NCBI RefSeq assembly: GCF_001563225.1
Contig: NZ_CP014206.1
Coordinates: forward strand, 3,513,486-3,577,485
From: Pseudodesulfovibrio indicus
Lineage (GTDB): Bacteria; Desulfobacterota; Desulfovibrionia; Desulfovibrionales; Desulfovibrionaceae
Direction of reading: 5' to 3'
DNA: 64,000 nt
The position numbers and the translations under genes were made by a program. The notes beneath the pieces are model-generated. The model saw only the letters and a program-made list of their open reading frames with translations, searched no databases and was not told the DNA's origin. Within the stretch, counting starts at the first letter, position 1. Each line of letters starts with the position of its first letter. This document shows, one piece after another, positions 5,467 through 54,628 of the stretch.

Positions 5467-7338
5467 TCAGTCGCGCTCATCCGGCTCGCACGGGACGCCG
5501 GGCAGGAGGATGGTGAACTCGCAGCCTCCCGCCTCCCTGTTCTTGACCTCGATGGAGCCGTTGTACTTGCTGATGATGCCGTAGCTCACCGAAAGCCCGA
5601 GCCCGAGATTGGTGTCCTTGCCGAGCTTTGACGAATAGAACGGCAGAAAGATGTTGCTCGGGTCCTCGTCGAGGATGCCGCACCCGTCGTCCATGAACCG
5701 GATGCGGGCCAGGGGCTTTCCGCCCTCCTCCACCATGTCGGTTTCGATGCGGATGGTTCCCGCGTCGCCGGCCGCCTCGAAGCTGTTTCTGAAGAGATTT
5801 AGCAGGACCTGCTTGATCTCGTTCTTTCTGGCCTCGACCACCACAGGACAATCGGGCGGCGAAAACCGGATCTCGATGTTGCGCCGCCGCGCGTCGATCC
5901 GAAGCAGGGCGATGATGGACAGCAGCAGCTCGCTGATGTCGATCTCCTCGATGACCACACGGGTTCGGTCGGAAAACGAGATCAGGTTGCTGACGATCTG
6001 CTTGATGTCCTCCAACTCTTCCTCGATGAGGTCGATGGTCTCGGCCACCTGCGTCTTTTCGAGGTTGAACTTCAGATAATTCAGGTGATTATAAATAATC
6101 TCCAAGGGGTTGTTGATCTCGTGGGCAACGCCCGCCGAGAGGATGCCCACCGAGGCCAGCTTCTCGGCCATGGTCAATTGCTGGCGCAGCGTTTCCTGCC
6201 GGGAGATGTCCTCGACGATGAGGATGTTGCCGATGAAGAACGCGCCGTCGCCGATGGGCAGGATCTTGATGTCCGCCGTGGTCTCCTTTTCACCGACCGT
6301 GGTGGGCACGGCATAAAACGCCGCCTCCCGCTGCTCCGCGAACGCGCCCTTGATCAGGGGCAGCGCTTTGCCGTCGCCCAGGGGAAACAGGTCGTCGATG
6401 CGGAGTTTCCTGTAGTCGGCATCGCCGAGCTCGAAATAATTCCGGCCATTGTCGTTGATCATCTTGATGCGGTTGTCGTTGTCCACGACCACAAGGTTGA
6501 TCGGCAGCTTTTGCAGGATGGCCTCGTTGTAGCGCAGGAGCTGATAGAACTCGCGCGAGTCCCCGGCCTTGGCATGCTCGGCCAGCTGGCTGTAGCACAG
6601 CTTGATCAGGTTGACCTTGTCCACGTTCTCGATGGATTCGGTGACGATGGTCTTGCCGTTGCGCAGGATGGTCACCCTGTCGGCCAGCGACGCCACCTCG
6701 TCGATGCCGTGGGCAAGGCAGAGGATGGCCGTGCCCTCCTCCTTCAAGGCGGCCAGGACGTGAAGCACCTTGTCCAGGTCCTCGGCGGACAGCTGCTCCA
6801 GGATGGCGTCCAGCACCAGAAGGCGCGGCTTGCGCAGGACGCTCCGCAGGAAATAGACGATGAGCTGCTCCGACGGACGCAATTCCTGAACCAGGGTCTC
6901 CGGGGAAAAATCGAAGCCGTACTTCTTCAGGATGTCCCCGCATTCCCGGTGCCACGCCCGTTTCTTGAAGAAAAACGGTTTGCTCTTGATCAGGTCGGGT
7001 ATGAGCAGATTGTCGGTCACGGTCAGGCAGTTGATAAGATGGGTCTCCTGGCAGACCAGCTCGATCTTGAGTTTCCTCGCCTCCCGCTGACTCAGGTTGG
7101 GGTATGCGGTGCCGTTGTAGAACCGCCGCCCGGAGTTGAGCCGGAGCAGCCCCGCCGTGAGGTTGGCCAGAGAGGACTTGCCCGCGCCATGATCGCCGAT
7201 GACCACATGGAATTCCCCGGGGCCGATGTCGAGGTTCACATTGCGCAGGGCATGGATGTGCCCCACGCCGCAGGCCACGTCTTCCAGCCTGAGGACCGCT
7301 TCACCCGGACCGTTCTCAGGCATATTGGTCGATCTCAT
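5467..7338 (-). CDS. Cytoplasmic sensor histidine kinase with N-terminal ABC-transporter-type ATPase domain (ABC_tran-PAS-HisKA-HATPase_c)
   Basis: Walker A GDHGAGKSSL, ABC signature LRPSEQL, Walker B LLVLD; then PAS, H-box HEINNPL, G-boxes GLGLSVSYGI; alternative start at MPENG (7323) gives ATGCCTGA overlap with upstream response regulator. Confidence 0.85.
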   Translation of the reverse strand: MRSTNMPENGPGEAVLRLEDVACGVGHIHALRNVNLDIGPGEFHVVIGDHGAGKSSLANLTAGLLRLNSGRRFYNGTAYPNLSQREARKLKIELVCQETHLINCLTVTDNLLIPDLIKSKPFFFKKRAWHRECGDILKKYGFDFSPETLVQELRPSEQLIVYFLRSVLRKPRLLVLDAILEQLSAEDLDKVLHVLAALKEEGTAILCLAHGIDEVASLADRVTILRNGKTIVTESIENVDKVNLIKLCYSQLAEHAKAGDSREFYQLLRYNEAILQKLPINLVVVDNDNRIKMINDNGRNYFELGDADYRKLRIDDLFPLGDGKALPLIKGAFAEQREAAFYAVPTTVGEKETTADIKILPIGDGAFFIGNILIVEDISRQETLRQQLTMAEKLASVGILSAGVAHEINNPLEIIYNHLNYLKFNLEKTQVAETIDLIEEELEDIKQIVSNLISFSDRTRVVIEEIDISELLLSIIALLRIDARRRNIEIRFSPPDCPVVVEARKNEIKQVLLNLFRNSFEAAGDAGTIRIETDMVEEGGKPLARIRFMDDGCGILDEDPSNIFLPFYSSKLGKDTNLGLGLSVSYGIISKYNGSIEVKNREAGGCEFTILLPGVPCEPDERD

Positions 7339-8653
7339 ATTTCTTCAGCTTGTTGTACAGCGTCTTGCGGCTGATGTTCAGGACCATGGCGGCCTTACGC
7401 TTGTTGTTCCCGGTTTCCTTGAGCGTGCGCAGGATAAGCCGCTTTTCGGCCTCCATGAGCATGGACCCCCGCCCTCCCTGCCGCTTCCTCTCCATCAGCG
7501 GGGTGGGCAGGTCTTCGAGATTGATGCAGTCGGCCACGGCCAGAGTGGCCGCATAGTTGATGGTGTTCTTCAATTCCCTGACATTGCCGGGCCAGGCGTA
7601 TTCCATGAACCGCTCCATGACCTCCCCGGACACGGAACGGACTTCCTTGGCGTTCTCCGCCGAGAACTGGGCCAGGAAATACTCGGTCAGCAGGGGGATG
7701 TCGTCGCGGCGCTCCCTCAGCGGCGGCAGCTTGAGGATGGCCGCGTTCAGCCGATAGTACAGGTCCTGCCGGAACCGTTTCTCGCTGATGAGCTTGTCCA
7801 GGTCCCTGTTGGTGGAGGTGATGAGCCGAATGTCCACCTTGATGGATTCCGTCCCGCCGATGCGGCGGATCTCCTGATTCTGGAGCGCCCGCAGGATCTT
7901 GGCCTGGGTGGACATGGACATGTCGCCGATCTCGTCCAGGTAGAGCGTCGTATCCCCCGCCCGCTCGATGATGCCGATGAACCGGCTCTGCGCGCCGGTG
8001 TACGCGCCCTTCTCATGGCCGAACAACTCGTTGTCCAGCAGGCTGTCCGGGAAAGCTGCGCTGTTGACCGTGACCATCTTTTTCGAGGCCCGGAGCGAGT
8101 TGTTGTGGATGAGGTTGGCCAGCAGCTCCTTGCCGGTGCCGTTCTCTCCCAGAATGAGGACCGAGATGTTCGTGCCCGCCAGCTTCTTGGCCTTCTCGCA
8201 CACGGCCAGGACCTCGTCGTTGCCGGTCACGATGCTGCCGGAAAGCTCCACGATCCTGTCCCGCAGGGTCGAGTTCTCCTGCTCCAGCTCCCCGAGCTTG
8301 ATGGCGTTCTCCACGATCTTCAGCAGCTTGTTGAAATCGAGCGGTTTCTGGACATAGTCGTAGGCGCCGAGCTTGACCGAGGTCACGGCGGACTCGATGG
8401 AACCGAAGCCCGTGATCATGATGACCGGCAGCCCCGGATACCGCTCGACCATGTCCTTGAGCAAGGCCAGGCCGTCCTCTTCCCCCAACATGATGTCGAG
8501 GAGCACGACCCCCACGGAACCGCTTTCCAGCGCGCCGAACGCCCGGCGCGAATTGGGCGCCTCGTGCACGAGATATCCGAGTTGCTCGAAGTTGCGGGCC
8601 AGGCTGCTCGACAGCTTGAGGTTGTCGTCGACAATCAGAATTTCCTTTCCCAT
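7316..8653 (-). CDS. sigma-54-dependent response regulator (REC-AAA+-HTH, NtrC family)
   Basis: REC (ILIVDDN...D in LLDIMLGE), AAA+ GENGTGKE, ESELFGHEKGAYTGA, C-terminal HTH; start placed at MGKEIL (GGAGAAATGGG RBS context), the ORF in the track is longer. Confidence 0.9.
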   Translation of the reverse strand: MGKEILIVDDNLKLSSSLARNFEQLGYLVHEAPNSRRAFGALESGSVGVVLLDIMLGEEDGLALLKDMVERYPGLPVIMITGFGSIESAVTSVKLGAYDYVQKPLDFNKLLKIVENAIKLGELEQENSTLRDRIVELSGSIVTGNDEVLAVCEKAKKLAGTNISVLILGENGTGKELLANLIHNNSLRASKKMVTVNSAAFPDSLLDNELFGHEKGAYTGAQSRFIGIIERAGDTTLYLDEIGDMSMSTQAKILRALQNQEIRRIGGTESIKVDIRLITSTNRDLDKLISEKRFRQDLYYRLNAAILKLPPLRERRDDIPLLTEYFLAQFSAENAKEVRSVSGEVMERFMEYAWPGNVRELKNTINYAATLAVADCINLEDLPTPLMERKRQGGRGSMLMEAEKRLILRTLKETGNNKRKAAMVLNISRKTLYNKLKKYEIDQYA

Positions 8654-44506: not shown

Positions 44507-44567
44507 ACGAACCCTCACGGCGGGCCGCTTCCCCTTGTCGGGGGAGCGGCCCGTTTTCCGGAGCTCC

Positions 44568-46106
44568 ATGCAGGACCCCATCCTGACCCTGAACGGCATC
44601 ACCAAGACCTTCGGGCCGGTGGTCGCCAACCAAGACGTGACCCTGACCCTCCATCGCGGCGAGATGCTCGCCCTGCTGGGCGAGAACGGCGCGGGCAAGA
44701 CCACCCTCATGTCCATCCTGTTCGGCCATTACGTGGCCGACGCGGGCACGGTGGAGGTGGACGGCGCGCCCCTGCCCCAGGGGTCGCCCCGCGCCGCGTT
44801 GAACGCGGGCGTGGGCATGGTCCACCAGCACTTCACCCTGGCCGGAAACATGTCCGTGCTCGAAAACGTCATGCTCGGCACCGAACCCCTGACCGCGCTC
44901 AGGCACGACCGCAAGACCGCCCTGGCCAAGCTCACGGCCCTGATGGCCCGCTTCGGCCTGGACGTGAACCCCTCGGCCAAGGTCAACGCCCTGTCCGTGG
45001 GCGAACGCCAGCGGGTGGAGATATTAAAGGTCCTGTACCGCGACGCACGCATCCTCATCCTGGACGAGCCGACCTCGGTGCTCACCCCGCAGGAGGCGGA
45101 CCACCTGTTCCACACCCTGCGCCAGATGGTCGGCGAGGGGCTGTCCGTGATCTTCATCACCCACAAGATGCGCGAGGTCATGGCCGCGTCCGACCGCTGC
45201 GCCGTGCTCCGCCAGGGGCGCGTGGTCTTCGAGTCGGCCACGGCGGACACCACCGCCGGGGAGCTGGCCCGGGCCATGGTCGGCAGCGACATCCCCAAGG
45301 CGCGCCGCCCGGAGCCGAAGCAGGGCAAGGAGATCCTGTACCTCGACTCCATCCGGGTGGATGACGCGCGCGGCAAACCGCTCCTGGACAACCTCTCCCT
45401 GAGCCTCAAGAGCCACGAAATCCTGGGCATCGCCGGGGTCTCCGGCAACGGCCAGGCCCAGCTGGCCGACCTGCTCTCCGGGCTGATCGCGCCCCGCTGC
45501 GGGCAGATCGTCATCCGGGGCAAGGCCGTGCACAACCCCACCCCGGCGGCCATGCTGGAGCGCGGCGTGGGCCGCGTGCCCGACGACCGCACCGGCACCG
45601 GCCTGGTGGCGGACATGACCGTCATGGAGAACCTGGCCACCGAGACCTACCGGCTGCCCGGCTTCGCCCGGCGCGGCGTGCTGAATTTCAAGGCGCTGGC
45701 CTCCCGCGCCAAACAACTGGTGGAAACCTTCGACATCCGCTGCCCCGGCATCGATACCCCGGTGCGCAAGCTGTCCGGCGGCAACATGCAAAAGCTCATC
45801 CTGGCCCGCGTGTTTTCGAGCGCGCCCGCCATCATCATGGTCAACCAGCCCACCTGGGGGCTGGACGTGGGGGCCACCGCCTACGTCCACCAGCAGCTCC
45901 TGAACGGGGCCGAACGCGGCGCGGGCATCATCCTCATCTCCGAGGACCTCGACGAACTGCTCCAGGTGGCGGACCGCATCCAGGTCATGTACCAGGGGTC
46001 CCTGTCCGACCCGGTTCCCACCTCCGGGGTGGACCGCGCCGGGCTGGGCCTGCTCATGTCCGGCAACCGGCCCAAGGGTGCCGGGGGAGGCGTAGCATGC
46101 GCATAG
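44568..46106 (+). CDS. nucleoside/sugar ABC transporter ATP-binding protein (two ATPase domains)
   Basis: Start MQDPILTLNGI; GENGAGKTT, LSVGERQRVEI; second domain LSGGNMQK. Confidence 0.9.
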   Translation: MQDPILTLNGITKTFGPVVANQDVTLTLHRGEMLALLGENGAGKTTLMSILFGHYVADAGTVEVDGAPLPQGSPRAALNAGVGMVHQHFTLAGNMSVLENVMLGTEPLTALRHDRKTALAKLTALMARFGLDVNPSAKVNALSVGERQRVEILKVLYRDARILILDEPTSVLTPQEADHLFHTLRQMVGEGLSVIFITHKMREVMAASDRCAVLRQGRVVFESATADTTAGELARAMVGSDIPKARRPEPKQGKEILYLDSIRVDDARGKPLLDNLSLSLKSHEILGIAGVSGNGQAQLADLLSGLIAPRCGQIVIRGKAVHNPTPAAMLERGVGRVPDDRTGTGLVADMTVMENLATETYRLPGFARRGVLNFKALASRAKQLVETFDIRCPGIDTPVRKLSGGNMQKLILARVFSSAPAIIMVNQPTWGLDVGATAYVHQQLLNGAERGAGIILISEDLDELLQVADRIQVMYQGSLSDPVPTSGVDRAGLGLLMSGNRPKGAGGGVACA

Positions 46107-47146
46107 AAGCGCGGGAGAATGTCTCCCTGGCCCGCAAGGCCCTGGCCCCGGTCCTGGCCGTGGGCGCGGCCATGGTCGTCTGTTCCGCCCTGCTCGTCTG
46201 GGCCGGGGCGTCCCCCCTGGAGGGCTGGGCGCTGATGCTCAAGGGCGCGCTGGGTTCCACCTTCGCCCTGACCGAGACCCTGACCCGCGCCACCCCGCTG
46301 ATCTTCACCGGGCTGGCCGCGGCCGTGGCCTTCCGGGCCAAGCTCTGGAACATCGGGGCCGAGGGACAGCTGTACATCGGCGCGGTGGTCGCCACCTGGC
46401 TCGGCGCGGGGTCCTTCGAGATGCCCGCCTTCCTGATGATCCCCTACCTCTTCCTGGCCGGAGCCGTGGGCGGGGGGCTGCTCCTGCTCCTGCCCACCCT
46501 GCTCAAGACCAAGCTCCAGGTGGACGAGGTGGTCACCACCCTGCTGCTCAACTTCATCGTCCTGCTGTTCGTCAACTGGCTGGTCTTCGGGCCGTGGAAG
46601 GACCCCATGGCCATGGGCTGGCCCCAGGCCGCGCCGGTGGTCGATTCCGCCCTGCTGCCCCAGCTCCTGGCCAAGACCCGGCTGCACCTGGGGTTCGTCA
46701 TCGCCCTGGCCTGCGCCGTGGGCGCGTGGTGGTTCATGCGCGCCACCACCTGGGGATTCGAGATCCGGGCCGTGGGCGCGAGCCCCCGCGCCAGTCGGTT
46801 CGCGGGCATGCCGGTGAACGCGGTCATCGTGCGCACCGCCCTGCTCTCCGGCGGGCTGGCCGCCATGGCGGGCGTGTCCGAGCTGCTCGGGGTCAAGGAG
46901 TACCTGACCCTCGACCTCTCCCCCGGCTTCGGCTACTCCGGCATCGTGGTCGCCATGCTCGCGGCCCTGCACCCGCTGGGCGTGGTCGCCTCGTCCCTGT
47001 TCGTGGCGGTCATCTACATCGGCGCGGACTCCATGAGCCGGGCCATCAACATCTCCAACTACATCGCGGACGTGACCACGGCGGTCTGTCTGCTCTCGGT
47101 GCTGGTCTCCATGTTCCTGACCCGCTACCGCATCCGGTGGAGGTAG
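46097..47146 (+). CDS. ABC transporter permease
   Basis: polytopic membrane protein. Confidence 0.9.
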   Translation: MRIEARENVSLARKALAPVLAVGAAMVVCSALLVWAGASPLEGWALMLKGALGSTFALTETLTRATPLIFTGLAAAVAFRAKLWNIGAEGQLYIGAVVATWLGAGSFEMPAFLMIPYLFLAGAVGGGLLLLLPTLLKTKLQVDEVVTTLLLNFIVLLFVNWLVFGPWKDPMAMGWPQAAPVVDSALLPQLLAKTRLHLGFVIALACAVGAWWFMRATTWGFEIRAVGASPRASRFAGMPVNAVIVRTALLSGGLAAMAGVSELLGVKEYLTLDLSPGFGYSGIVVAMLAALHPLGVVASSLFVAVIYIGADSMSRAINISNYIADVTTAVCLLSVLVSMFLTRYRIRWR

Positions 47147-47147
47147 C

Positions 47148-48089
47148 ATGAACCTGTTCGACTTCCTTCTTGAGACCGGTTTCTGGATGGCCACCATCCG
47201 GATGGCCTCGCCGCTCATCTTCGGCACCCTGGGCGAGCTGATCTGCGAGCGCGCGGGCGTGCTCAACCTCGGCATCGAGGGCATCATGTCCGCCGGGTGC
47301 ATGGCGGGCTGGATGTGGGTCTACCTCGGCGGCGACCTGTGGACCGGCGTGCTCTTCGCGGCCTTTGTGGGCGCGATGTTCGGGCTGCTCCACGCCCTGT
47401 TCACCGTGCACCTGGGGCTGTCCCAGCACGTCACGGGCCTGGGCATCACCATGCTCGGATCGAGCCTCGCGGCCTTCGTCTTCCGCATGCTCCTGCCCAA
47501 GGCCACCACCCCGCCCAAGATCGTGCCGTTCACCCCGCTCAAGGTCCCGTTCCTGTCCGACCTGCCCTTCCTGGGCGAGACCCTGTTCAACCAGACCGCC
47601 CTCACCTATCTGGCCCTCGCCATGGTCGTGGTGGTCGCCTACCTGCTCTTCCGCACCCCGCTGGGGCTGGCCGTGCGCATGGTCGGCGAAAACCCCATGG
47701 CCGCCGAGGCGCAGGGATTGTCCGTGTTCTCCATCCGCACCGGCGCGGTCATGGCGGGCAGCGCGCTCATGGCCGTGGGCGGCGCGTTCCTGACCATGTC
47801 CGCCTTTGACGCGCACTACATCGGCATGGTCAACGGACGCGGCTGGATCTGCATCGCCCTGGTGGTCTTCTCGTCCTGGAAACCGGCCAAGGCGCTGCTG
47901 GGCTGCGTGCTCTTCGCGGCCTTCGACGCCATCCAGATGCGCGTGCAGCAGCAGTCCGGCATGGCCATCCCGTACCAATTCTACTTGATGATGCCCTACG
48001 TTTTCTCCATCATAGCGCTCATCGTCATGTCGCGCCGCGCGGCCTACCCCAAGGCCCTGCTCATCCCCTTCCGCAGGGGCGAACGCTAA
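47148..48089 (+). CDS. ABC transporter permease
   Basis: polytopic membrane protein. Confidence 0.9.
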   Translation: MNLFDFLLETGFWMATIRMASPLIFGTLGELICERAGVLNLGIEGIMSAGCMAGWMWVYLGGDLWTGVLFAAFVGAMFGLLHALFTVHLGLSQHVTGLGITMLGSSLAAFVFRMLLPKATTPPKIVPFTPLKVPFLSDLPFLGETLFNQTALTYLALAMVVVVAYLLFRTPLGLAVRMVGENPMAAEAQGLSVFSIRTGAVMAGSALMAVGGAFLTMSAFDAHYIGMVNGRGWICIALVVFSSWKPAKALLGCVLFAAFDAIQMRVQQQSGMAIPYQFYLMMPYVFSIIALIVMSRRAAYPKALLIPFRRGER

Positions 48090-48105
48090 CGAAAGGGAGA
48101 ACCCC

Positions 48106-49371
48106 ATGCTCGACCTGCTGGTCAAGAACGCGCGCATCGCCGGGCGCGAAACCACGGCGGACATCGCCTGCCGGGACGGGAAGATCGTCGAGGTCGCCCC
48201 GTGCATCGAGGGCGAGGCCGCTCGGACCATTGACGCCGACGGCTGCCTGGTCACGCCCCCCTTCGTGGACTCCCACTTCCACATGGACGCCACCCTGTCC
48301 ATGGGCATGCCGCGCCTGAACCGGTCCGGCACCCTGCTGGAGGGCATCCGCATCTGGGGCGAGCTCAAGCCCGACCTGACCCCCGAGGGGTTGAAGGAAC
48401 GCGCCCTCAAGCTCTGCTCCTGGGCCGTGGCCAAGGGCAACCTGGCCATCCGCACCCACGTGGACACCACGGACCCGACCCTGATGGCCGTGGACATGCT
48501 CCTGGAGGTGCGCGAGGAGATGAAGGAGTTCATCGACATCCAGCTGGTGGCCTTTCCCCAGGACGGCGTGCTGCGCTGCGAACGCGGCGTGGAGCTCTTG
48601 AAGCGCGCCCTGGACAAGGGCGTGGACGTGGTCGGCGGCATCCCGCACTTCGAGCGGACCATGGACGAGGGCCGAAGGTCCGTGGAGATCCTCTGCGAGA
48701 TCGCGGCGGACCGGGGGCTGATGGTCGACATGCACTGCGACGAGTCCGACGACCCGCACTCGCGGCACATCGAATCCCTGACCTTCCAGACGCAACGGCT
48801 GGGCATGCAGGGCCGCGTCACCGGCTCGCACCTGACCTCCATGCACTCCATGGACAACTACTACGTGTCCAAGCTCCTGCCGCTCATGGCCGAGGCCGGG
48901 ATCAACTGCGTGTGCAACCCGCTGGTGAACATGAACCTCCAAGGCCGCCACGACACCTATCCCAAGCGGCGCGGGCTGATGCGCGTGCCCGAGCTGACGG
49001 CCATGGGGATCAACGTGTCGCTCGGCCACGACGACGTCATGGACCCGTGGTATCCCATGGGCACCCACGACATGCTGGAGGTCGCCCACATGGGCGCGCA
49101 CGCCCTGCACATGACCGGCACGGACCAGCAGGAAGCGTTGTTCGACGCGGTCACCGTCAACGGCGCGAAGACCCTGAACCTCGCGGGCTACGGGCTGGCC
49201 CCGGGCGACAACGCGGACATGGTCGTGCTCCAGGCCGCTAACCGGCTGGAGGCGCTCAGGCTGCACCCCGCCCGGCTGTTCGTCATCCGGCGCGGCAAGG
49301 TCATCTCCACCACCCCGCCGGTGCGCGCCACCGTGGAGCTGGGACGAACCCTGACCGTGGATTTCCGCTGA
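48106..49371 (+). CDS. codA: cytosine deaminase-like amidohydrolase
   Basis: 421 aa, DSHFHMD metal motif, HxH..H..D pattern of CodA family. Confidence 0.85.
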   Translation: MLDLLVKNARIAGRETTADIACRDGKIVEVAPCIEGEAARTIDADGCLVTPPFVDSHFHMDATLSMGMPRLNRSGTLLEGIRIWGELKPDLTPEGLKERALKLCSWAVAKGNLAIRTHVDTTDPTLMAVDMLLEVREEMKEFIDIQLVAFPQDGVLRCERGVELLKRALDKGVDVVGGIPHFERTMDEGRRSVEILCEIAADRGLMVDMHCDESDDPHSRHIESLTFQTQRLGMQGRVTGSHLTSMHSMDNYYVSKLLPLMAEAGINCVCNPLVNMNLQGRHDTYPKRRGLMRVPELTAMGINVSLGHDDVMDPWYPMGTHDMLEVAHMGAHALHMTGTDQQEALFDAVTVNGAKTLNLAGYGLAPGDNADMVVLQAANRLEALRLHPARLFVIRRGKVISTTPPVRATVELGRTLTVDFR

Positions 49372-49435: not shown

Positions 49436-49468
49436 GGCCCGGAGTCCGAGGACCCCGGGCCGTGTTTT
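49436..49468. terminator. bidirectional terminator between convergent codA and multiheme cytochrome
   Basis: aaaaaGGCCCGG...CCGGGCCgtgtttt. Confidence 0.5.
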
Positions 49469-49483: not shown

Positions 49484-51778
49484 TTACTTCTTTGTCAGGC
49501 CATAGCCCAGCGGCAGCTTCTTGAACCGGCCGCCGTAGACGATGGGATCGCCCTTGTAGCCGAGCTTCCTGAAGTCGATGTAGTCGGTGGAGCCGATCAG
49601 GTCGTCCACGTCGCGGCCCATCATCTTGAGCAGCTCGAAGTCCGCGCCCTGCTCCACCAGCTCCCGGAACTTGACCTCGCGGGAATCCTGGTGGCAGCGG
49701 TCGCAGGTCCGCTCGCCCTTGAGGCTCTCGTGGCACTGGACGCAGGACAGGGCGTGCTCCTTGGGCATGACCTCGTGCTCGATGCGCCAGTACATGTTGG
49801 TGGCGACCCACATGTACTCGCCGCTGTAGGGCAGATTGGCCTTGGCCATGCCTTCCTTGAACGCGGCCTGCCAGTCGGTCCCCTTCCAGAAGGCGGACGT
49901 GTCCTCCTTGCCGTAGGGGAACAGGTGCGGCACCAGCAGATAGCGGTGCTTGGCGTCCGCGGGCTGGATGCCGGCCATGATCTTGAACGGCGTGATCTTG
50001 GAGTGCGGGTCGTCCAGGGCGCCCACCGGACGGGTGATGTCCGTGACGACCATGGCCGCCTTCTGCTCCGGGGTCGGCTGCTCGCCCGGCAGGAACCCCT
50101 TGGCCTCCGGATTGATGGGGTCGCCCAGCAGGCGGCGCTCCATGAACCCGTTGTACCAGGCGTAGACGGGCTTGGCCGCCTCCTTCCAGCGGAAGTCGCC
50201 CTTCATCCAGTTGTAGTCCGGCTTGCCGTACTTGTCCTTGCGCACCTCGCGCTTCTTGTCCCCGGCCGTGGACCAGTCCCACCAGGTCTTCGTCGCCGCG
50301 CACTTGGAGTAGATGGGCGAGTGGCAGGCGTTGCAGGCCACGGTCTCGCAGTGCATGTTCAGGTGATGGTCGAGCAGGCTCTCGCCGTAGTGCGGCTTGG
50401 ACGTATGGCAGTCCTCGCAGGCGCGGGACCCTTCGGCCACGGGCACGGAGGTGGACCGGCCCGATATCTTGTGGTTCCGGGTCTCGTGGCACTCCGTGCA
50501 GCTGAAGTCGTAGCCGCCCATGTGGATGTCGCAGTTGCGGTCGGGCCAGTTGAGCTCGGCCGACATGTCCGCGTGCTTGACCGCGTCCCCGCCGCCGCCC
50601 GCGAAGTGGCAGACGCCGCAGGTCTGGCGGCTGGAGGGGCCGACGTTTTGGGCGACGAAGACCATGTCCACCTTGGGGTCGGGCATGCCCGCCGCGGGCG
50701 GTGCCTTGCGATAGCTGCCCGTGGTGTCGTGGCAGACCAGGCAGTCCATGTTCTCCTTGTTGGAGAAGTCGAAGGTGTTGTCCTTCCAGCCGTACCCGGC
50801 GTGGCAGGAGGTGCAGCGGGATTCGTTGCTGAGCACCGACAGGCAGAAGTTGTTCAGCGTGGTGGTGCCCTTGCCGGACAGGACGCTCTTGCGGTGCTCC
50901 ACGGTGTACGGAGACGGGCCGCGCCACAGCCAGTGGGCCGTGGTCAGCATGTCCTCGCCCGCCTGTTCGTGGCAGCGCAGGCATTCCCGCGTGACCTCCT
51001 GCGGAGAGGGGTTGTCCGGGAGCTTGACCAGCTCCTTGTGGTCCACCGGGCGCTTGGCGTGGCACCCTTCGCAACTGACCGGCCCCTGCTTCATCTGCTC
51101 ATGGCAGTCCATGCACTGCATGTGGTAGGCGGCCTTGAGCCCGATGCGCTCGGGGTCCTTCTCGGAGAAGGCGTCCTGGTGGCAGGAGCGGCAGGCCACG
51201 ATCTCGGCGGCCTCGGGGTCCTCGGGGCGGTAGTGGTGGCAGGAGGCGCAATCGCCGTTCAGGGCGGCCGAATGCTTGGCGTGCATGAACCGCACGGGCT
51301 CGTACTTGCGGTCAAAGGTGTCCACGAACTCGCTGTCCAGCAGGATGTAGCTCTGCTTCATGTCCTTGGGGCCGATGCCCAGCTTGCGCAGCCGCTGCTG
51401 GCGCAGGGGCAGGTCCTCCATGAGCACCTTGTCCACGTAGGGGTGTTCCTTGCGGGCCAGCTCCTCCGCCTTGACCTGGTCCACGGGCGACCAGCTCTCG
51501 GGCCTGGGAGTCAGATCCTTGCGCGACTTGGCCACGGGCTCGGCCTCACCGGCCGGGGGCGTGGCGGTCCAGGCCGGGGCCAGCGCCCACAGGACCGTGA
51601 CCGCGACGGCCAGGACCGACCAACCGATTATCTTCCTCGGCTTCGTCTTCATCGGGAACACCGTGCGTCCGGGGGACAACGGGGGCGTGGCGGTCCAGGC
51701 CGGGGCCAGCGCCCACAGGACCGTGACCGCGACGGCCAGGACCGACCAACCGATTATCTTCCTCGGCTTCGTCTTCAT
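49484..51778 (-). CDS. 13-heme periplasmic multiheme cytochrome c with duplicated N-terminal signal peptide
   Basis: 13 CxxCH motifs (CASCHH...CDRCHQ); true ATG at 51778 forms ATGA overlap with NrfD stop and has AGGAGG RBS; track ORF 49484..52537 is an upstream wrong-frame extension. Confidence 0.85.
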   Translation of the reverse strand: MKTKPRKIIGWSVLAVAVTVLWALAPAWTATPPLSPGRTVFPMKTKPRKIIGWSVLAVAVTVLWALAPAWTATPPAGEAEPVAKSRKDLTPRPESWSPVDQVKAEELARKEHPYVDKVLMEDLPLRQQRLRKLGIGPKDMKQSYILLDSEFVDTFDRKYEPVRFMHAKHSAALNGDCASCHHYRPEDPEAAEIVACRSCHQDAFSEKDPERIGLKAAYHMQCMDCHEQMKQGPVSCEGCHAKRPVDHKELVKLPDNPSPQEVTRECLRCHEQAGEDMLTTAHWLWRGPSPYTVEHRKSVLSGKGTTTLNNFCLSVLSNESRCTSCHAGYGWKDNTFDFSNKENMDCLVCHDTTGSYRKAPPAAGMPDPKVDMVFVAQNVGPSSRQTCGVCHFAGGGGDAVKHADMSAELNWPDRNCDIHMGGYDFSCTECHETRNHKISGRSTSVPVAEGSRACEDCHTSKPHYGESLLDHHLNMHCETVACNACHSPIYSKCAATKTWWDWSTAGDKKREVRKDKYGKPDYNWMKGDFRWKEAAKPVYAWYNGFMERRLLGDPINPEAKGFLPGEQPTPEQKAAMVVTDITRPVGALDDPHSKITPFKIMAGIQPADAKHRYLLVPHLFPYGKEDTSAFWKGTDWQAAFKEGMAKANLPYSGEYMWVATNMYWRIEHEVMPKEHALSCVQCHESLKGERTCDRCHQDSREVKFRELVEQGADFELLKMMGRDVDDLIGSTDYIDFRKLGYKGDPIVYGGRFKKLPLGYGLTKK

Positions 51779-51788
51779 CGGGACACCT
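51555..51788. repeat. 126-bp in-frame tandem direct duplication (about 1.85 copies) spanning start codon and signal peptide of the cytochrome gene
   Basis: Unit gggggcgtggcggtccaggccggggccagcgcccacaggaccgtgaccgcgacggccaggaccgaccaaccgattatcttcctcggcttcgtcttcatcggga... occurs at 51555 and again at 51681; encodes [33 protein letters not shown] twice. Confidence 0.85.
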
Positions 51789-52938
51789 CCTGTCGTTGGG
51801 CGGAAAGCACCGGGAACCAGGTCACGAACAGACGGTACAGGAAGAAGATCGCGGCCACGGACCCGGCGGTGACCAGAATCTCGCCGATGGCCGGGTAGTA
51901 CGGACTCGTCGCATACGGAGCCTTGAACGAGACCACGAACACGTTGAAGCGGTTGAGCATCACGCCCGAGACGATGAGCAGGGCCGCCGTGAAGAGCAGC
52001 CTGCGCGACCGGCGCACCGCCGGGAAGAGCAGCATGACCCAGGGCAGGATCACGCCGAGCCCCACTTCCACCAGGAAGGAACCGCTCTGGGCCGAGCCGT
52101 CCAGCAGGGTGGCGTAGGCCCCGCGCCAGATCAGGTCCCCGACCTTGAGGAACAGGTAGACGCCGAGCAGCAGGATGGTGATCCTGGACAGCGGGGTGAG
52201 CACGTTCATCTCCGACTCCAGCTTGAGCGAGGAGGTGGCGATGGTCGTCTCGACCACGACCATGGGATAGCCCACGGCAAAGGCCGAAGTCAGGAAGAGC
52301 AGCGGTTGCAGCGGCGTGGCCCACAGGGGCGACGTCTTGGTCGGCGCGATGACCATCAGGGTGCCGAGGCTCGACTGGTGCATGCAGGACAGCACCACCC
52401 CGAGGATGATGAAGACCCACATGGTCTTGTCCAGGATGCGGTCCAGGAAGGCCAGCAGCCTGATCTTGTGGCCCAGCTTTTCCGCCAGGACCGGGATGAA
52501 CTCGATCCACAGCACGGTGACGTAGGTCATGACGCACATGGCCACCTCGAACAGGGCCGAGGTGTGGTTCTGGTAGATGACCACCTTCCAGATGGCCCAG
52601 GAGCGGCCGATGTCGAAGAACACGGCCAGGGCCACGAAGGTGTAGCCCAGGGCGGCGGTCAGCAGCGCGGGCCGGGTCACGGCCTCGTAATAGTGGCGGC
52701 CCAGGATGTGGGCCAGGAAGGCGGTGGTGAAGCCGCCCGCGGCCAGGGCCACGCCCGAGGCCACGTCCAGGCCGATCCAGATGCCCCAGGGGTAGTGGTT
52801 GTTCAGGTTGGTCACGGCGGACAGGCCGTAGGTGTAGCGGACGACCAGGGTCACGCCCGCAGCGATCATCAGGGCCAGCATGACCAGGACGCCGGGTGTC
52901 CAGAAGGGTTGTGCGACGGGTTGGGGCCTATGCGTCAT
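51775..52938 (-). CDS. NrfD/PsrC-family polytopic membrane quinone-interacting subunit
   Basis: 387 aa, ~10 TM, AAGGAGGA RBS; start overlaps FeS gene stop. Confidence 0.9.
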
Positions 52939-53836
52939 GGCCGTCCTCCTTGTCGTGCTTGCGGCTGGTGTAGCCCATGACCGCGCCGAGGACCCCGAAC
53001 AGGGCCAGCGGGGACCACAGGTAGCTGAACAGCCCGCTCTGGATGGTCTCCGTGGTCTGCGGCATGGGCCGGGTGGGCAGGGCCTGGAAGCCGACCTTCC
53101 CGAAATCCACGTTGGAGATGTACATCCAGCTCGTGCCGCCCACTTCCCGCTCGCCGTAGATGTGGTCGTTGTACTTGCCGGGATCGCCCTTGATGCGCTC
53201 GCGGGCCTGGCCGAGCAGCTCGGACCGTTTGCCGAAGGTGATGGCCTCCACCGGACAGATGGACGCGCAGCCGGGCTTGCCCCCCTCCTTGGAGATGCGC
53301 TCGAAACAGAAGGTGCACTTGCGCACCCTGGGCAGGACGGGCCGGTCGTACTCGTAGGCCGGAATCTCGAAGGGACAGGCGGCCATGCAGTAGCGGCAGC
53401 CGATACACTTGTCCACGTCGTAATGCACGGCCCCGTTCTCCTTCTTGCTCAGGGCCCCGGTGATGCACGCCGAGGCGCAGGCCGGGTCCTGGCAATGCAT
53501 GCACTGCACCTTGACGAAGGTGGGGACCAGCTTGTCCCGGTCGTCGATGCGGCCGGAATAGTAGCGGTTGATGACGGTAAAGGCGTTCTGGTCCGGGCGG
53601 CGCTTGACGTCGAGGATGGTCAGGTCGTCGAACTTGATCGCGGGCTCGGGCAGGTCGTTGACCTCCTTGCAGGCCTGCTCGCACTTGCGGCAGCCGACGC
53701 AGCGGGTCAGGTCCACCAGGCATCCGTAGGGGTCCGGCGGCGCCTTCGACTGCCAGGCCTCCGCATTCTTGGGCGCCGCAGCGGTCGCCCCGGCAATCCC
53801 CAATGCGGCCAGAAAACTTCTGCGGGTAATCGGCAT
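52928..53836 (-). CDS. TAT-exported 4x[4Fe-4S] ferredoxin-type subunit (PsrB/NrfC/HmcB-like)
   Basis: [22 protein letters not shown] twin-arginine signal; four Cx2Cx2Cx3CP motifs. Confidence 0.9.
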
Positions 53837-53947
53837 TTCATTCTCCTATTAAAAGCAGACAGTTATGAATTATTCACGCACATACCATAGGGAAATTTTC
53901 GAAACAGCGCATTGATCGCGATCAAATTTTATGAAAAACCTGCACCT

Positions 53948-54628
53948 ATGAGCACATATGAAAACCTGCGACGGATTCCGCTGTTCACCGGTCTCAACGA
54001 CCAGGCGCTCCAGGCCTTGGCCGACCGGGCGAGAATGAGCGAATACGGGGCCGAAGAACGGATTGTCAGCCAATCCGACGACGTACAGGCCTTCTTCATC
54101 GTCCTGTCGGGGAGAGTGAAGATTTCCAGAAGCTCGCCCAGGGGCAAGGAGCAGATTCTCTATCTGGTGGAGGAGGGGCAGCCGTTCTGCTTCTGCACCG
54201 CGTTCACCGACCGCCCCTACCCGGTGGACGTGACCGCGCTGGAGCCGTCGCTGGTGGCCATGATCCCGGCCAGGGACATGGAAGACCTGGCCCGCAACGC
54301 GCCGGGGCTGATGCTCAAGATCGTCCAGATTCTCTCCGGACGGCTCCTGGAGGCCATGAATCTGGTCGAGGCCCTGGCCCTGCAGGGGACCCAGGAGCGC
54401 ATAGCCGGTTTCCTGCTCCACGCGGAGTCCTGCTTCGCCGACGAGCCGGGGACCGCCTTCAGCCTGCCCATCTCGCACCGTGAAATGGCCAAGATCGTGG
54501 GCACCACCTCGGAGACCCTTTCGCGGGTCATCCAGAAACTCAAGCGGCGCAACCTCATTGAAGCAAGCGGCAGGGTTATCCGGGTGGTCGACCATGCCGA
54601 ATTGTCCGACGCCGACTACGGGGAATAG
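53948..54628 (+). CDS. Crp/Fnr-family transcriptional regulator
   Basis: cNMP-binding domain plus C-terminal HTH (MAKIVGTTSETLSRVIQKL); start at MSTYENL. Confidence 0.85.
   Translation: MSTYENLRRIPLFTGLNDQALQALADRARMSEYGAEERIVSQSDDVQAFFIVLSGRVKISRSSPRGKEQILYLVEEGQPFCFCTAFTDRPYPVDVTALEPSLVAMIPARDMEDLARNAPGLMLKIVQILSGRLLEAMNLVEALALQGTQERIAGFLLHAESCFADEPGTAFSLPISHREMAKIVGTTSETLSRVIQKLKRRNLIEASGRVIRVVDHAELSDADYGE

Follow-up and report, generated by a model that had tools for sequence, protein, structure and literature searches.

For octaheme tetrathionate reductase (Otr), a crystal structure and in vitro activities have been available for two decades, and the enzyme has no established role in the cell. 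In vitro, enzymes of this type act as reductases of tetrathionate, nitrite and hydroxylamine (PMC6449678; PMC12949373). Their catalytic heme is heme II (PMC4484225), and the penta-coordinate heme is located in the N-terminal module (PMC9250108). In Shewanella, Otr is soluble and takes its electrons from the small tetraheme cytochrome (STC), which docks to it (PMC4484225). A module of three genes has also been described, in which a cytochrome of the octahaem tetrathionate reductase family is accompanied by a C-tail iron-sulfur (FeS) protein and by a quinol oxidase resembling HybB (PMC10924467; Microbiology 2024, Fig. 3). Desulfosarcina ovata and Humidesulfovibrio mexicanus are given as examples of this module, no function is assigned to it and no conserved neighbours are reported. 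The module was also noted in the genome paper of Thermosulfurimonas dismutans (PMC4911364), and a review of the NrfD family lists no Otr complex (PMC8076601). Here, we analyzed a stretch of 64,000 nucleotides from Pseudodesulfovibrio indicus (contig NZ_CP014206.1, positions 3,513,486 to 3,577,485 of the forward strand), referred to as the window. It contains an operon of three genes, the triad, encoding a FeS protein, an NrfD-family membrane subunit and a multiheme cytochrome. The operon is an ordinary, already annotated locus and a further member of the published module. Based on its domain composition and by analogy with known complexes, we consider it likely that the triad forms a three-subunit, membrane-bound periplasmic reductase with an Otr-type catalytic subunit, probably fed by menaquinol.

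The triad consists of three overlapping open reading frames (ORFs) on the minus strand, at the positions that an earlier reading of the window (the original prediction) had given:

53836..52928, minus strand: FeS protein gene (ORF of 302 amino acids)
52938..51775, minus strand: NrfD-family gene (ORF of 387 amino acids)
51778..49484, minus strand: cytochrome gene (764 amino acids from the first ATG; 722 amino acids from the second ATG at 51652)

The ATG of the nrfD-type gene (52938) is preceded by AAGGAGGA and lies in an 11-nt overlap with the stop of the FeS gene, while the first ATG of the cytochrome gene (51778) is preceded by GGAGG and overlaps the nrfD stop as ATGA. The ribosome-binding sites of these overlapping genes are good. 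Taken together, the reading frames, the heme motifs and the two overlaps bear out the original description of three translationally coupled genes in the order FeS, NrfD, 13-heme cytochrome. Family matches of the three proteins (E values of 1e-144, 1e-104 and 1e-98) lie far above chance level. RefSeq holds P. indicus proteins identical to all three and to the adjacent regulator, and names the triad proteins ‘4Fe-4S dicluster domain-containing protein’, ‘Ni/Fe-hydrogenase cytochrome b subunit / NrfD/PsrC family...’ and ‘tetrathionate reductase family octaheme c-type cytochrome’. The module had been proposed as novel; this proposal does not stand, as the module is described in PMC10924467, noted in PMC4911364 and annotated in RefSeq. 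Neither hydrogenase genes nor hmcA, hmcD, hmcE or hmcF are present in the operon or its flanks.

The identity of the cytochrome carries the argument. The protein has exactly 13 CXXCH motifs and no CXXCK motif, and its parts are as follows, with residues numbered on the 764-residue form:

51059..51307, minus strand: tetraheme cytochrome c3-type domain with hemes 1-4 (residues 158-240; PF02085, E 1e-11)
49718..51043, minus strand: Otr module with hemes 5-12 (residues 246-687; TIGR04315)
50870-50872, minus strand: Lys303, aligned with position 56 of 1SP3
50843-50845, minus strand: Cys312, aligned with position 64 (Cys) of 1SP3
50801-50815, minus strand: predicted catalytic heme II motif CTSCH at residue 322, placed by alignment with Otr
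49724..50290, minus strand: PF11783 (Cytochrome_cB) region (residues 497-685, E 3e-60), aligned throughout with 1SP3
49487..49705, minus strand: 13th heme motif CDRCH (49691-49705) and a conserved tail of about 70 amino acids; the alignment with 1SP3 stops before this region

Against TIGR04315, the Otr module scores 480 bits where the cut-off is 375, and the match covers positions 2-429 of the 440 positions of the model. A phmmer comparison with the crystal structure of the Shewanella oneidensis enzyme (1SP3) gives an E value of 1.6e-114 and places 8/8 heme motifs in register. An AlphaFold2 model, a check that the original prediction had proposed, was built on 109 homologues (predicted local distance difference test score, pLDDT, of 86.5). 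It superposes on 1SP3 in Foldseek with an E value of 1e-41, a template modelling (TM) score of 0.85 normalised to the target and a root-mean-square deviation of 2.5 Å. Judged by alignment and model, residues 246-687 are thus assigned as a full-length member of the Otr family, and the cytochrome can no longer be called an uncharacterised 13-heme protein as it had been.

Conservation among the 109 homologues extends to the predicted active site. The equivalent of Lys303, all 13 CXXCH motifs and the c3-type distal histidines are invariant, and the equivalent of Cys312 is nearly invariant. Lys56 of Otr is said, from the 2004 work of Mowat and colleagues, to ligate heme II. An active site of the NrfA or MccA kind was considered and rejected: the CXXCK motif of NrfA is absent, no true CX15CH, the motif that MccA has along with a Cu site, is found in the cytochrome (matches to C-x11-17-CH merely span adjacent CXXCH motifs), and no NrfA or MccA model matches.

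The stretch from residue 487 to 678 is free of heme motifs, and the two remaining motifs are at 679 and 692. That only two hemes lie beyond the heme-free C-terminal stretch had been seen correctly. The large globular region around it had been taken for something new; it is PF11783, and its alignment with 1SP3 indicates the usual Otr fold, of which the heme-free stretch is the beta-rich part between hemes VII and VIII. The original prediction had further placed a catalytic domain in the last 300 residues. It was right in so far as the cytochrome contains an enzyme part and is not a simple heme wire, and wrong about the place, because the catalytic heme II and Lys303 are situated upstream of these residues.

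By their positions in the alignments, the 13 heme motifs resolve into four in the c3 domain, eight in the Otr module and one more. The sequences closest to the c3 domain are the last domain of HmcA, the nine-heme cytochrome and cytochrome c3, and Foldseek matches of the N-terminal heme domain include 1DUW and 3CAO (nine-heme cytochrome and c3 structures). At the other end, the C, R, C and H of CDRCH are invariant in the 109 homologues, the tail is conserved as TDYIDF..LGYKGDPI..GGRFKKLPLG, and the model reaches a pLDDT of ~84-95 in this region. Octaheme-only Otr proteins have neither the tail nor the 13th heme. For the conserved N-terminal region and for the tail, the Foldseek comparison gave no structural relatives.

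The FeS protein combines a twin-arginine translocation (Tat) signal (RRSFL) with four cysteine clusters of the CxxCxxCxxxC type, 16 Cys in all, and its C-terminal membrane helix spans residues 269-287; it scores 64 bits with PF13247, and among NCBIfam models 346 bits with HmcB (cut-off 420) and 258 bits with HybA (cut-off 263). From these features it is classed as a Tat-exported, C-tail-anchored ferredoxin-type subunit of the HmcB/HybA type with four predicted [4Fe-4S] motifs. The membrane subunit matches PF03916 with 75 bits (gathering threshold 25.8), has ~10 hydrophobic helices in its hydropathy profile, and scores 327 bits with HybB (cut-off 450) and 255 bits with HmcC (cut-off 550), so that it is placed in the NrfD/PsrC family as a HybB-type member. 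NrfD-type quinol dehydrogenases are cofactor-less as a family (PMC8076601), and the menaquinol site of the triad is presumed to be located in this subunit.

To assess how constant this arrangement is, one genome per species was scanned, which gave more than 580 relatives; the best 80 loci were kept, 69 of which have at least 2.25 kb of upstream DNA. The synteny, which the original prediction had also suggested examining, is kept: in 67/69 of the loci with enough upstream DNA, the FeS, NrfD and cytochrome genes follow each other contiguously on one strand. The conserved triad occurs in Desulfovibrionaceae, Desulfobacterales, Desulfohalobiaceae, Syntrophobacterales, Desulfarculaceae, Desulfatiglandales and Acidobacteriota. 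Two loci depart from this pattern: L020 lacks FeS and NrfD genes within 8 kb of its fused cytochrome gene, and in L082 the aprBA genes separate the nrfD-type gene from the cytochrome gene. In genes for octaheme-only Otr (453-470 amino acids; Shewanella, Desulfuromonas, Malonomonas), FeS and NrfD neighbours are absent in 3/3 loci. The fusion (c3 domain and extra heme) and the membrane module therefore go together. This supports the view that the fused c3 domain may connect the cytochrome with the membrane module.

The same loci bear on the idea that the cytochrome is a periplasmic Otr fed by soluble cytochrome c3, the FeS/NrfD pair being a membrane dock or a separate module of the operon. The soluble Otr of Shewanella, which requires no membrane partner of its own and is fed by a tetraheme shuttle (PMC4484225), provides a precedent, and the lone fused cytochrome of L020 would fit as well. 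We nevertheless consider this arrangement quite improbable, since the order, overlap and presence of the triad genes are strictly kept in 67/69 loci, and since it is the octaheme-only Otr genes that lack FeS/NrfD partners. Also against it, a metagenome-assembled genome (MAG) of Acidobacteriota (P0032) contains a single ORF of 1043 amino acids that comprises both the NrfD-type protein and the c3-Otr cytochrome; this ORF either reflects a true fusion or results from a sequencing error where the stop and start codons overlap.

One peculiarity of the P. indicus assembly concerns the 5' end of the cytochrome gene:

51554..51783, minus strand: perfect 104-nt direct repeat with filler (copies at 51680-51783 and 51554-51657; 22-nt filler at 51658-51679)

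Repeat and filler amount to 126 nt inserted in frame, and the signal peptide is thereby encoded twice. Five sequences that are otherwise 99.4-100% identical lack the insertion (L001-L003, L087, L088); they come from draft genome GCA_004365595.1 of P. indicus, from a Logan run assembly and from metagenome contigs of the Joint Genome Institute (JGI). A second copy of the 22-nt filler was not found in the 64-kb window. A perfect tandem repeat of 104 nt is expected to be genetically unstable, and the insertion reflects either an artefact of the assembly or a duplication that arose very recently and is unstable. One could read this as a cytochrome gene that is damaged or mis-assembled here, through an artefact or through a recent mutation, in which case tandem signal peptides would lead to mis-targeting of the protein. 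The absence of the insertion from near-identical sequences of the same species, the expected instability and the fact that the 764-residue product is not on record anywhere all point that way. The insertion is however in frame, and translation from the second ATG (51652) still gives a normal protein of 722 amino acids, the form on public record for P. indicus, so that we regard damage to the gene as distinctly unlikely. In either case, the duplication has no bearing on the identity of the operon.

In the mechanism that we propose, menaquinol would be oxidised at the cofactor-less HybB/NrfD-type subunit, and the ferredoxin subunit, which is Tat-exported and tail-anchored, would relay the electrons over its four [4Fe-4S] clusters. 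The electrons would then enter the cytochrome via the fused c3 domain, and possibly also via the 13th heme next to heme VIII, and would travel along the Otr heme chain to the lysine-ligated catalytic heme II, where a small sulfur or nitrogen oxyanion would be reduced. The fused c3 domain may thus be the covalent counterpart of the Shewanella STC. On this account the triad is periplasmic and most likely quinol-linked, in agreement with the oxidoreductase proposed originally. Complex formation, the direction of electron flow, the substrate and the regulation are what we infer here, while the domain composition, the conserved active-site residues, the conserved operon and the link between fusion and partner genes are observed in the alignments and loci above.

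The direction of electron flow is the weakest step of this mechanism; it rests on thermodynamics and on the analogy with Nrf and Mcc. The potential of menaquinone is well below that of the tetrathionate/thiosulfate couple, and tetrathionate reduction by menaquinol would therefore be downhill. The couple itself stands at +198 mV (cited in PMC8528874).

Several points weigh against a menaquinol-fed reductase. HybAB and HmcBC/NhcBC, the closest relatives of the FeS/NrfD pair, are thought to run from the periplasm to the quinone (PMC8076601). The c3 domain could draw directly on the periplasmic cytochrome c3 pool and so bypass quinol. The otr gene of Shewanella ANA-3 is not needed for tetrathionate respiration, and a role with sulfite has been suggested for it (PMC12949373). 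The flanking genes of the triad give mixed hints, with hcp in two loci versus aprBA in two loci pointing in different directions. Finally, export in this window could suffer from the doubled signal peptide, provided that the duplication is real and that translation starts at the first ATG.

Carried further, the first of these points would make the triad an electron input similar to Hmc or Nhc. Electrons of the c3 pool (from hydrogenases and formate dehydrogenases) would enter the c3 domain, pass to the FeS/HybB-like pair and reach menaquinone, with Otr as a side branch or overflow valve. The subunit scores fit such a flow, since HmcB/HybA are the best-scoring models of the FeS subunit and HybB/HmcC those of the membrane subunit, as does the similarity of the c3 domain to the last domain of HmcA and to the nine-heme cytochrome; Hmc and Nhc are described as cytochrome c3:quinone or H2:quinone oxidoreductases (PMC8076601). 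A wire, however, needs neither a full Otr module nor an invariant lysine and a nearly invariant cysteine, all of which are kept in the 109 homologues. With all Hmc and Nhc equivalog scores under their cut-offs, with the genes for HmcDEF and NhcD absent and with the module also found in Acidobacteriota, an electron input of this kind is unlikely, and we continue with the menaquinol-fed reductase.

For this reductase, several classes of substrate come into consideration. Tetrathionate or related thionates are possible, and nitrite, hydroxylamine or another nitrogen oxide are possible to a similar extent; sulfite or something else is more doubtful. When conserved flanking genes were considered as hints to the substrate, only regulators recurred. 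An acidobacterial otr (Ca. Sulfomarinibacter) is induced 36-fold by tetrathionate (PMC8528874). Whether this gene belongs to the fused type was assessed with the published quantitative PCR (qPCR) primers, which gave only chance matches in the loci and metagenome contigs; the 36-fold induction is therefore not transferable to the fused clade. Individual loci have further neighbours. In L020, hcp (6077-7723; hybrid cluster protein, annotated as hydroxylamine reductase; 842 bits) is located directly upstream of the fused cytochrome gene, and in Desulfobacter curvatus (L033) hcp is found 2.4 kb from the triad. The adenosine phosphosulfate (APS) reductase genes aprBA occur in two Desulfohalobiaceae MAGs, where they adjoin the triad (L048:2021-4572) or lie within it (L082:4891-7448).

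The control region of the operon and its end contain the following elements:

53948..54628, plus strand: divergent Crp/Fnr-family regulator of 226 amino acids (PF00027 and PF13545)
53912..53925, no strand: FNR-type palindromic box TTGATCGCGATCAA, a perfect palindrome and predicted site
53884..53889, minus strand: predicted -10 hexamer TATGGT, 22 nt downstream of the box
49436..49461, minus strand: intrinsic-terminator-like hairpin with an 11-bp stem (9 G-C pairs) followed by TTTTTG, 23 nt past the cytochrome stop

A Crp/Fnr regulator beside the module had been reported, and the divergent gene is indeed there, with a hybrid sensor kinase gene and a chemoreceptor gene beyond it. Its start is the ATG at 53948, as in the orthologs, and the TTG at 53912 given in the ORF listing is the first half-site of the box. 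The regulator has no N-terminal FNR cysteine cluster; a PFC(F/L)C motif is conserved in it, and its recognition helix reads E--SR, which we take to be of the FNR type with TTGAT half-sites. None of the NCBIfam equivalogs is reached at cut-off. An ortholog occupies the same position in 7 related loci.

The pattern TTGAYNNNNATCAA has one match in the 64-kb window, which is the box, versus 0.11 expected by chance. Five other Desulfovibrionaceae-type loci have a TTGAY-N4-ATCAA box in the corresponding position and 2 further loci have a near-match there, and the spacing of 22 nt between the box and a TAnnnT-like hexamer is seen in most orthologous loci. If the predicted transcription start is near 53877, the centre of the box would be at ~-41.5, which is a class II geometry. 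TTGATCGCGATCAA is accordingly listed as a predicted binding site of the adjacent Crp/Fnr regulator and as a predicted activator site of the operon. The operon would then be one transcription unit that runs from an FNR-type class II promoter to an intrinsic terminator and that is controlled by the divergent regulator.

Outside Desulfovibrionaceae, a divergent sigma-54 activator usually takes the place of the Crp/Fnr regulator (~40 loci, for example L013:3881-5290, L024:3806-5206 and L060:2360-3748). The N-terminal PAS domain of this activator has 4-5 conserved cysteines (about C-x5-C-x2-C-x12-C), which suggests an FeS-containing or redox-sensing domain. Both types of regulator look like redox or gas sensors and not like substrate-specific sensors, and the type of regulator therefore does not settle the substrate.

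On the other side of the triad and convergent with it, the window contains a cytosine deaminase gene (725 bits) and a set of ATP-binding cassette (ABC) transporter genes at 44535-49371. The set comprises two BPD_transp_2 permeases and a double ABC ATPase, and a Bmp-type binding protein is seen in L001. This cluster looks like nucleobase or nucleoside salvage, unrelated to the redox module.

The fused cytochrome module is widespread in sulfate reducers and marine Acidobacteriota. We tentatively entertain the stronger proposal that the triad truly serves respiration, as a menaquinol-dependent terminal reductase that may conserve energy and that acts on a sulfur-cycle intermediate (tetrathionate or other thionates, sulfite) or on a nitrogen oxide. 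If so, Otr would gain a physiological role, which it has lacked since 2004, and the cryptic sulfur/nitrogen cycle of sediments would contain an unrecognised electron-accepting branch. Pseudodesulfovibrio mercurii ND132 and some other Pseudodesulfovibrio relatives are genetically tractable. The fused, membrane-linked form, with its own quinol module and regulator and its conservation in many Desulfobacterota, offers a cleaner system in which to address substrate and direction. Shewanella genetics argue against tetrathionate respiration via Otr (PMC12949373).

Among the known systems, the enzyme with the closest catalytic subunit is Otr of S. oneidensis (SO_4144; 1SP3; TIGR04315), which matches over its full length and has the same 8 motifs, the same Lys/Cys pair, PF11783 and the same fold. 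It differs from the triad in being a soluble octaheme protein of ~460 amino acids that has no FeS or NrfD genes and has monoheme cytochrome and DUF3373 genes upstream. To Otr, the P. indicus cytochrome adds a conserved N-terminal region of ~110 amino acids, the c3 domain, the 13th heme and the tail of ~70 amino acids and, unlike Shewanella Otr, it is encoded with a module of the quinol-dehydrogenase type. The original prediction would have been overturned by orthology to a characterised complex; such orthology holds for the enzyme family of the catalytic subunit and not for the complex as a whole. The Shewanella-type surroundings of octaheme-only Otr, with genes for a small monoheme cytochrome and a DUF3373 protein upstream, are seen in L084:2694-4957, and the metagenome contig L113:524-2176 has a Shewanella-like arrangement of DUF3373 and cytochrome genes.

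The complexes of sulfate reducers were compared in the same way. The triad resembles Hmc and Nhc of Desulfovibrio in its HmcB-like and HmcC-like subunits and in the c3-type tetraheme domains of the cytochrome, and is unlike them in that the cytochrome gene comes last, that D/E/F subunits are missing and that the cytochrome is an enzyme module. Hmc itself was rejected based on scores of 64/400 (HmcA), 346/420 (HmcB) and 255/550 bits (HmcC), and because the operon of three genes is bounded by promoter and terminator. Nhc was rejected because the nine-heme cytochrome model gives 41 bits for a cut-off of 640 and no NhcD gene is present, and Tmc and a Qrc variant because their NCBIfam equivalog scores are far under the cut-offs and by gene content. 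Ohc of D. vulgaris (ohcBAC) shares with the triad an operon of three genes with an FeS protein and a periplasmic multiheme cytochrome, and it has a divergent sigma-54 activator in Desulfovibrionales (PMC4641369). It is set apart by its published subunit composition and its B-A-C gene order, OhcC being a heme b membrane protein (PMC4641369) where the triad has an NrfD-type subunit; OhcA sequences were not part of this comparison. The original prediction had named all five of these complexes as different from the triad, and in this it was correct.

HybB of Escherichia coli is the best NCBIfam match of the membrane subunit and HybA the second-best of the FeS subunit, and HybA and the triad FeS protein both have a Tat signal and a C-terminal anchor. 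Accessory subunits of hydrogenase-2 were rejected as an identity (HybB 327/450, HybA 258/263), with no hydrogenase genes nearby.

The described module of PMC10924467 comprises the same three proteins in the same order and with the same predicted topology as the P. indicus triad. Its cytochrome is called octahaem there, whereas the P. indicus form has 13 hemes and, unlike in that account, divergent regulators (Crp/Fnr or Cys-rich PAS sigma-54 activator) are conserved at the triad.

In overall design, the triad is most similar to NrfABCD of E. coli and to MccACD/SirACD, in which a periplasmic catalytic multiheme cytochrome is likewise joined by a 4x[4Fe-4S] protein exported via Tat and by a cofactor-less quinol dehydrogenase of the NrfD type (PMC8076601). 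Its catalytic subunit is neither NrfA (no CXXCK) nor MccA, and its FeS and membrane subunits group with HybAB/HmcBC and not with NrfCD (NrfC 101 bits, cut-off 378). Nrf uses an intermediate cytochrome, NrfB, whose place would be taken in the triad by the fused c3 domain. In its overall logic, the proposed complex follows the NrfABCD/MccACD design, assembled from parts of the HybAB/HmcBC type.

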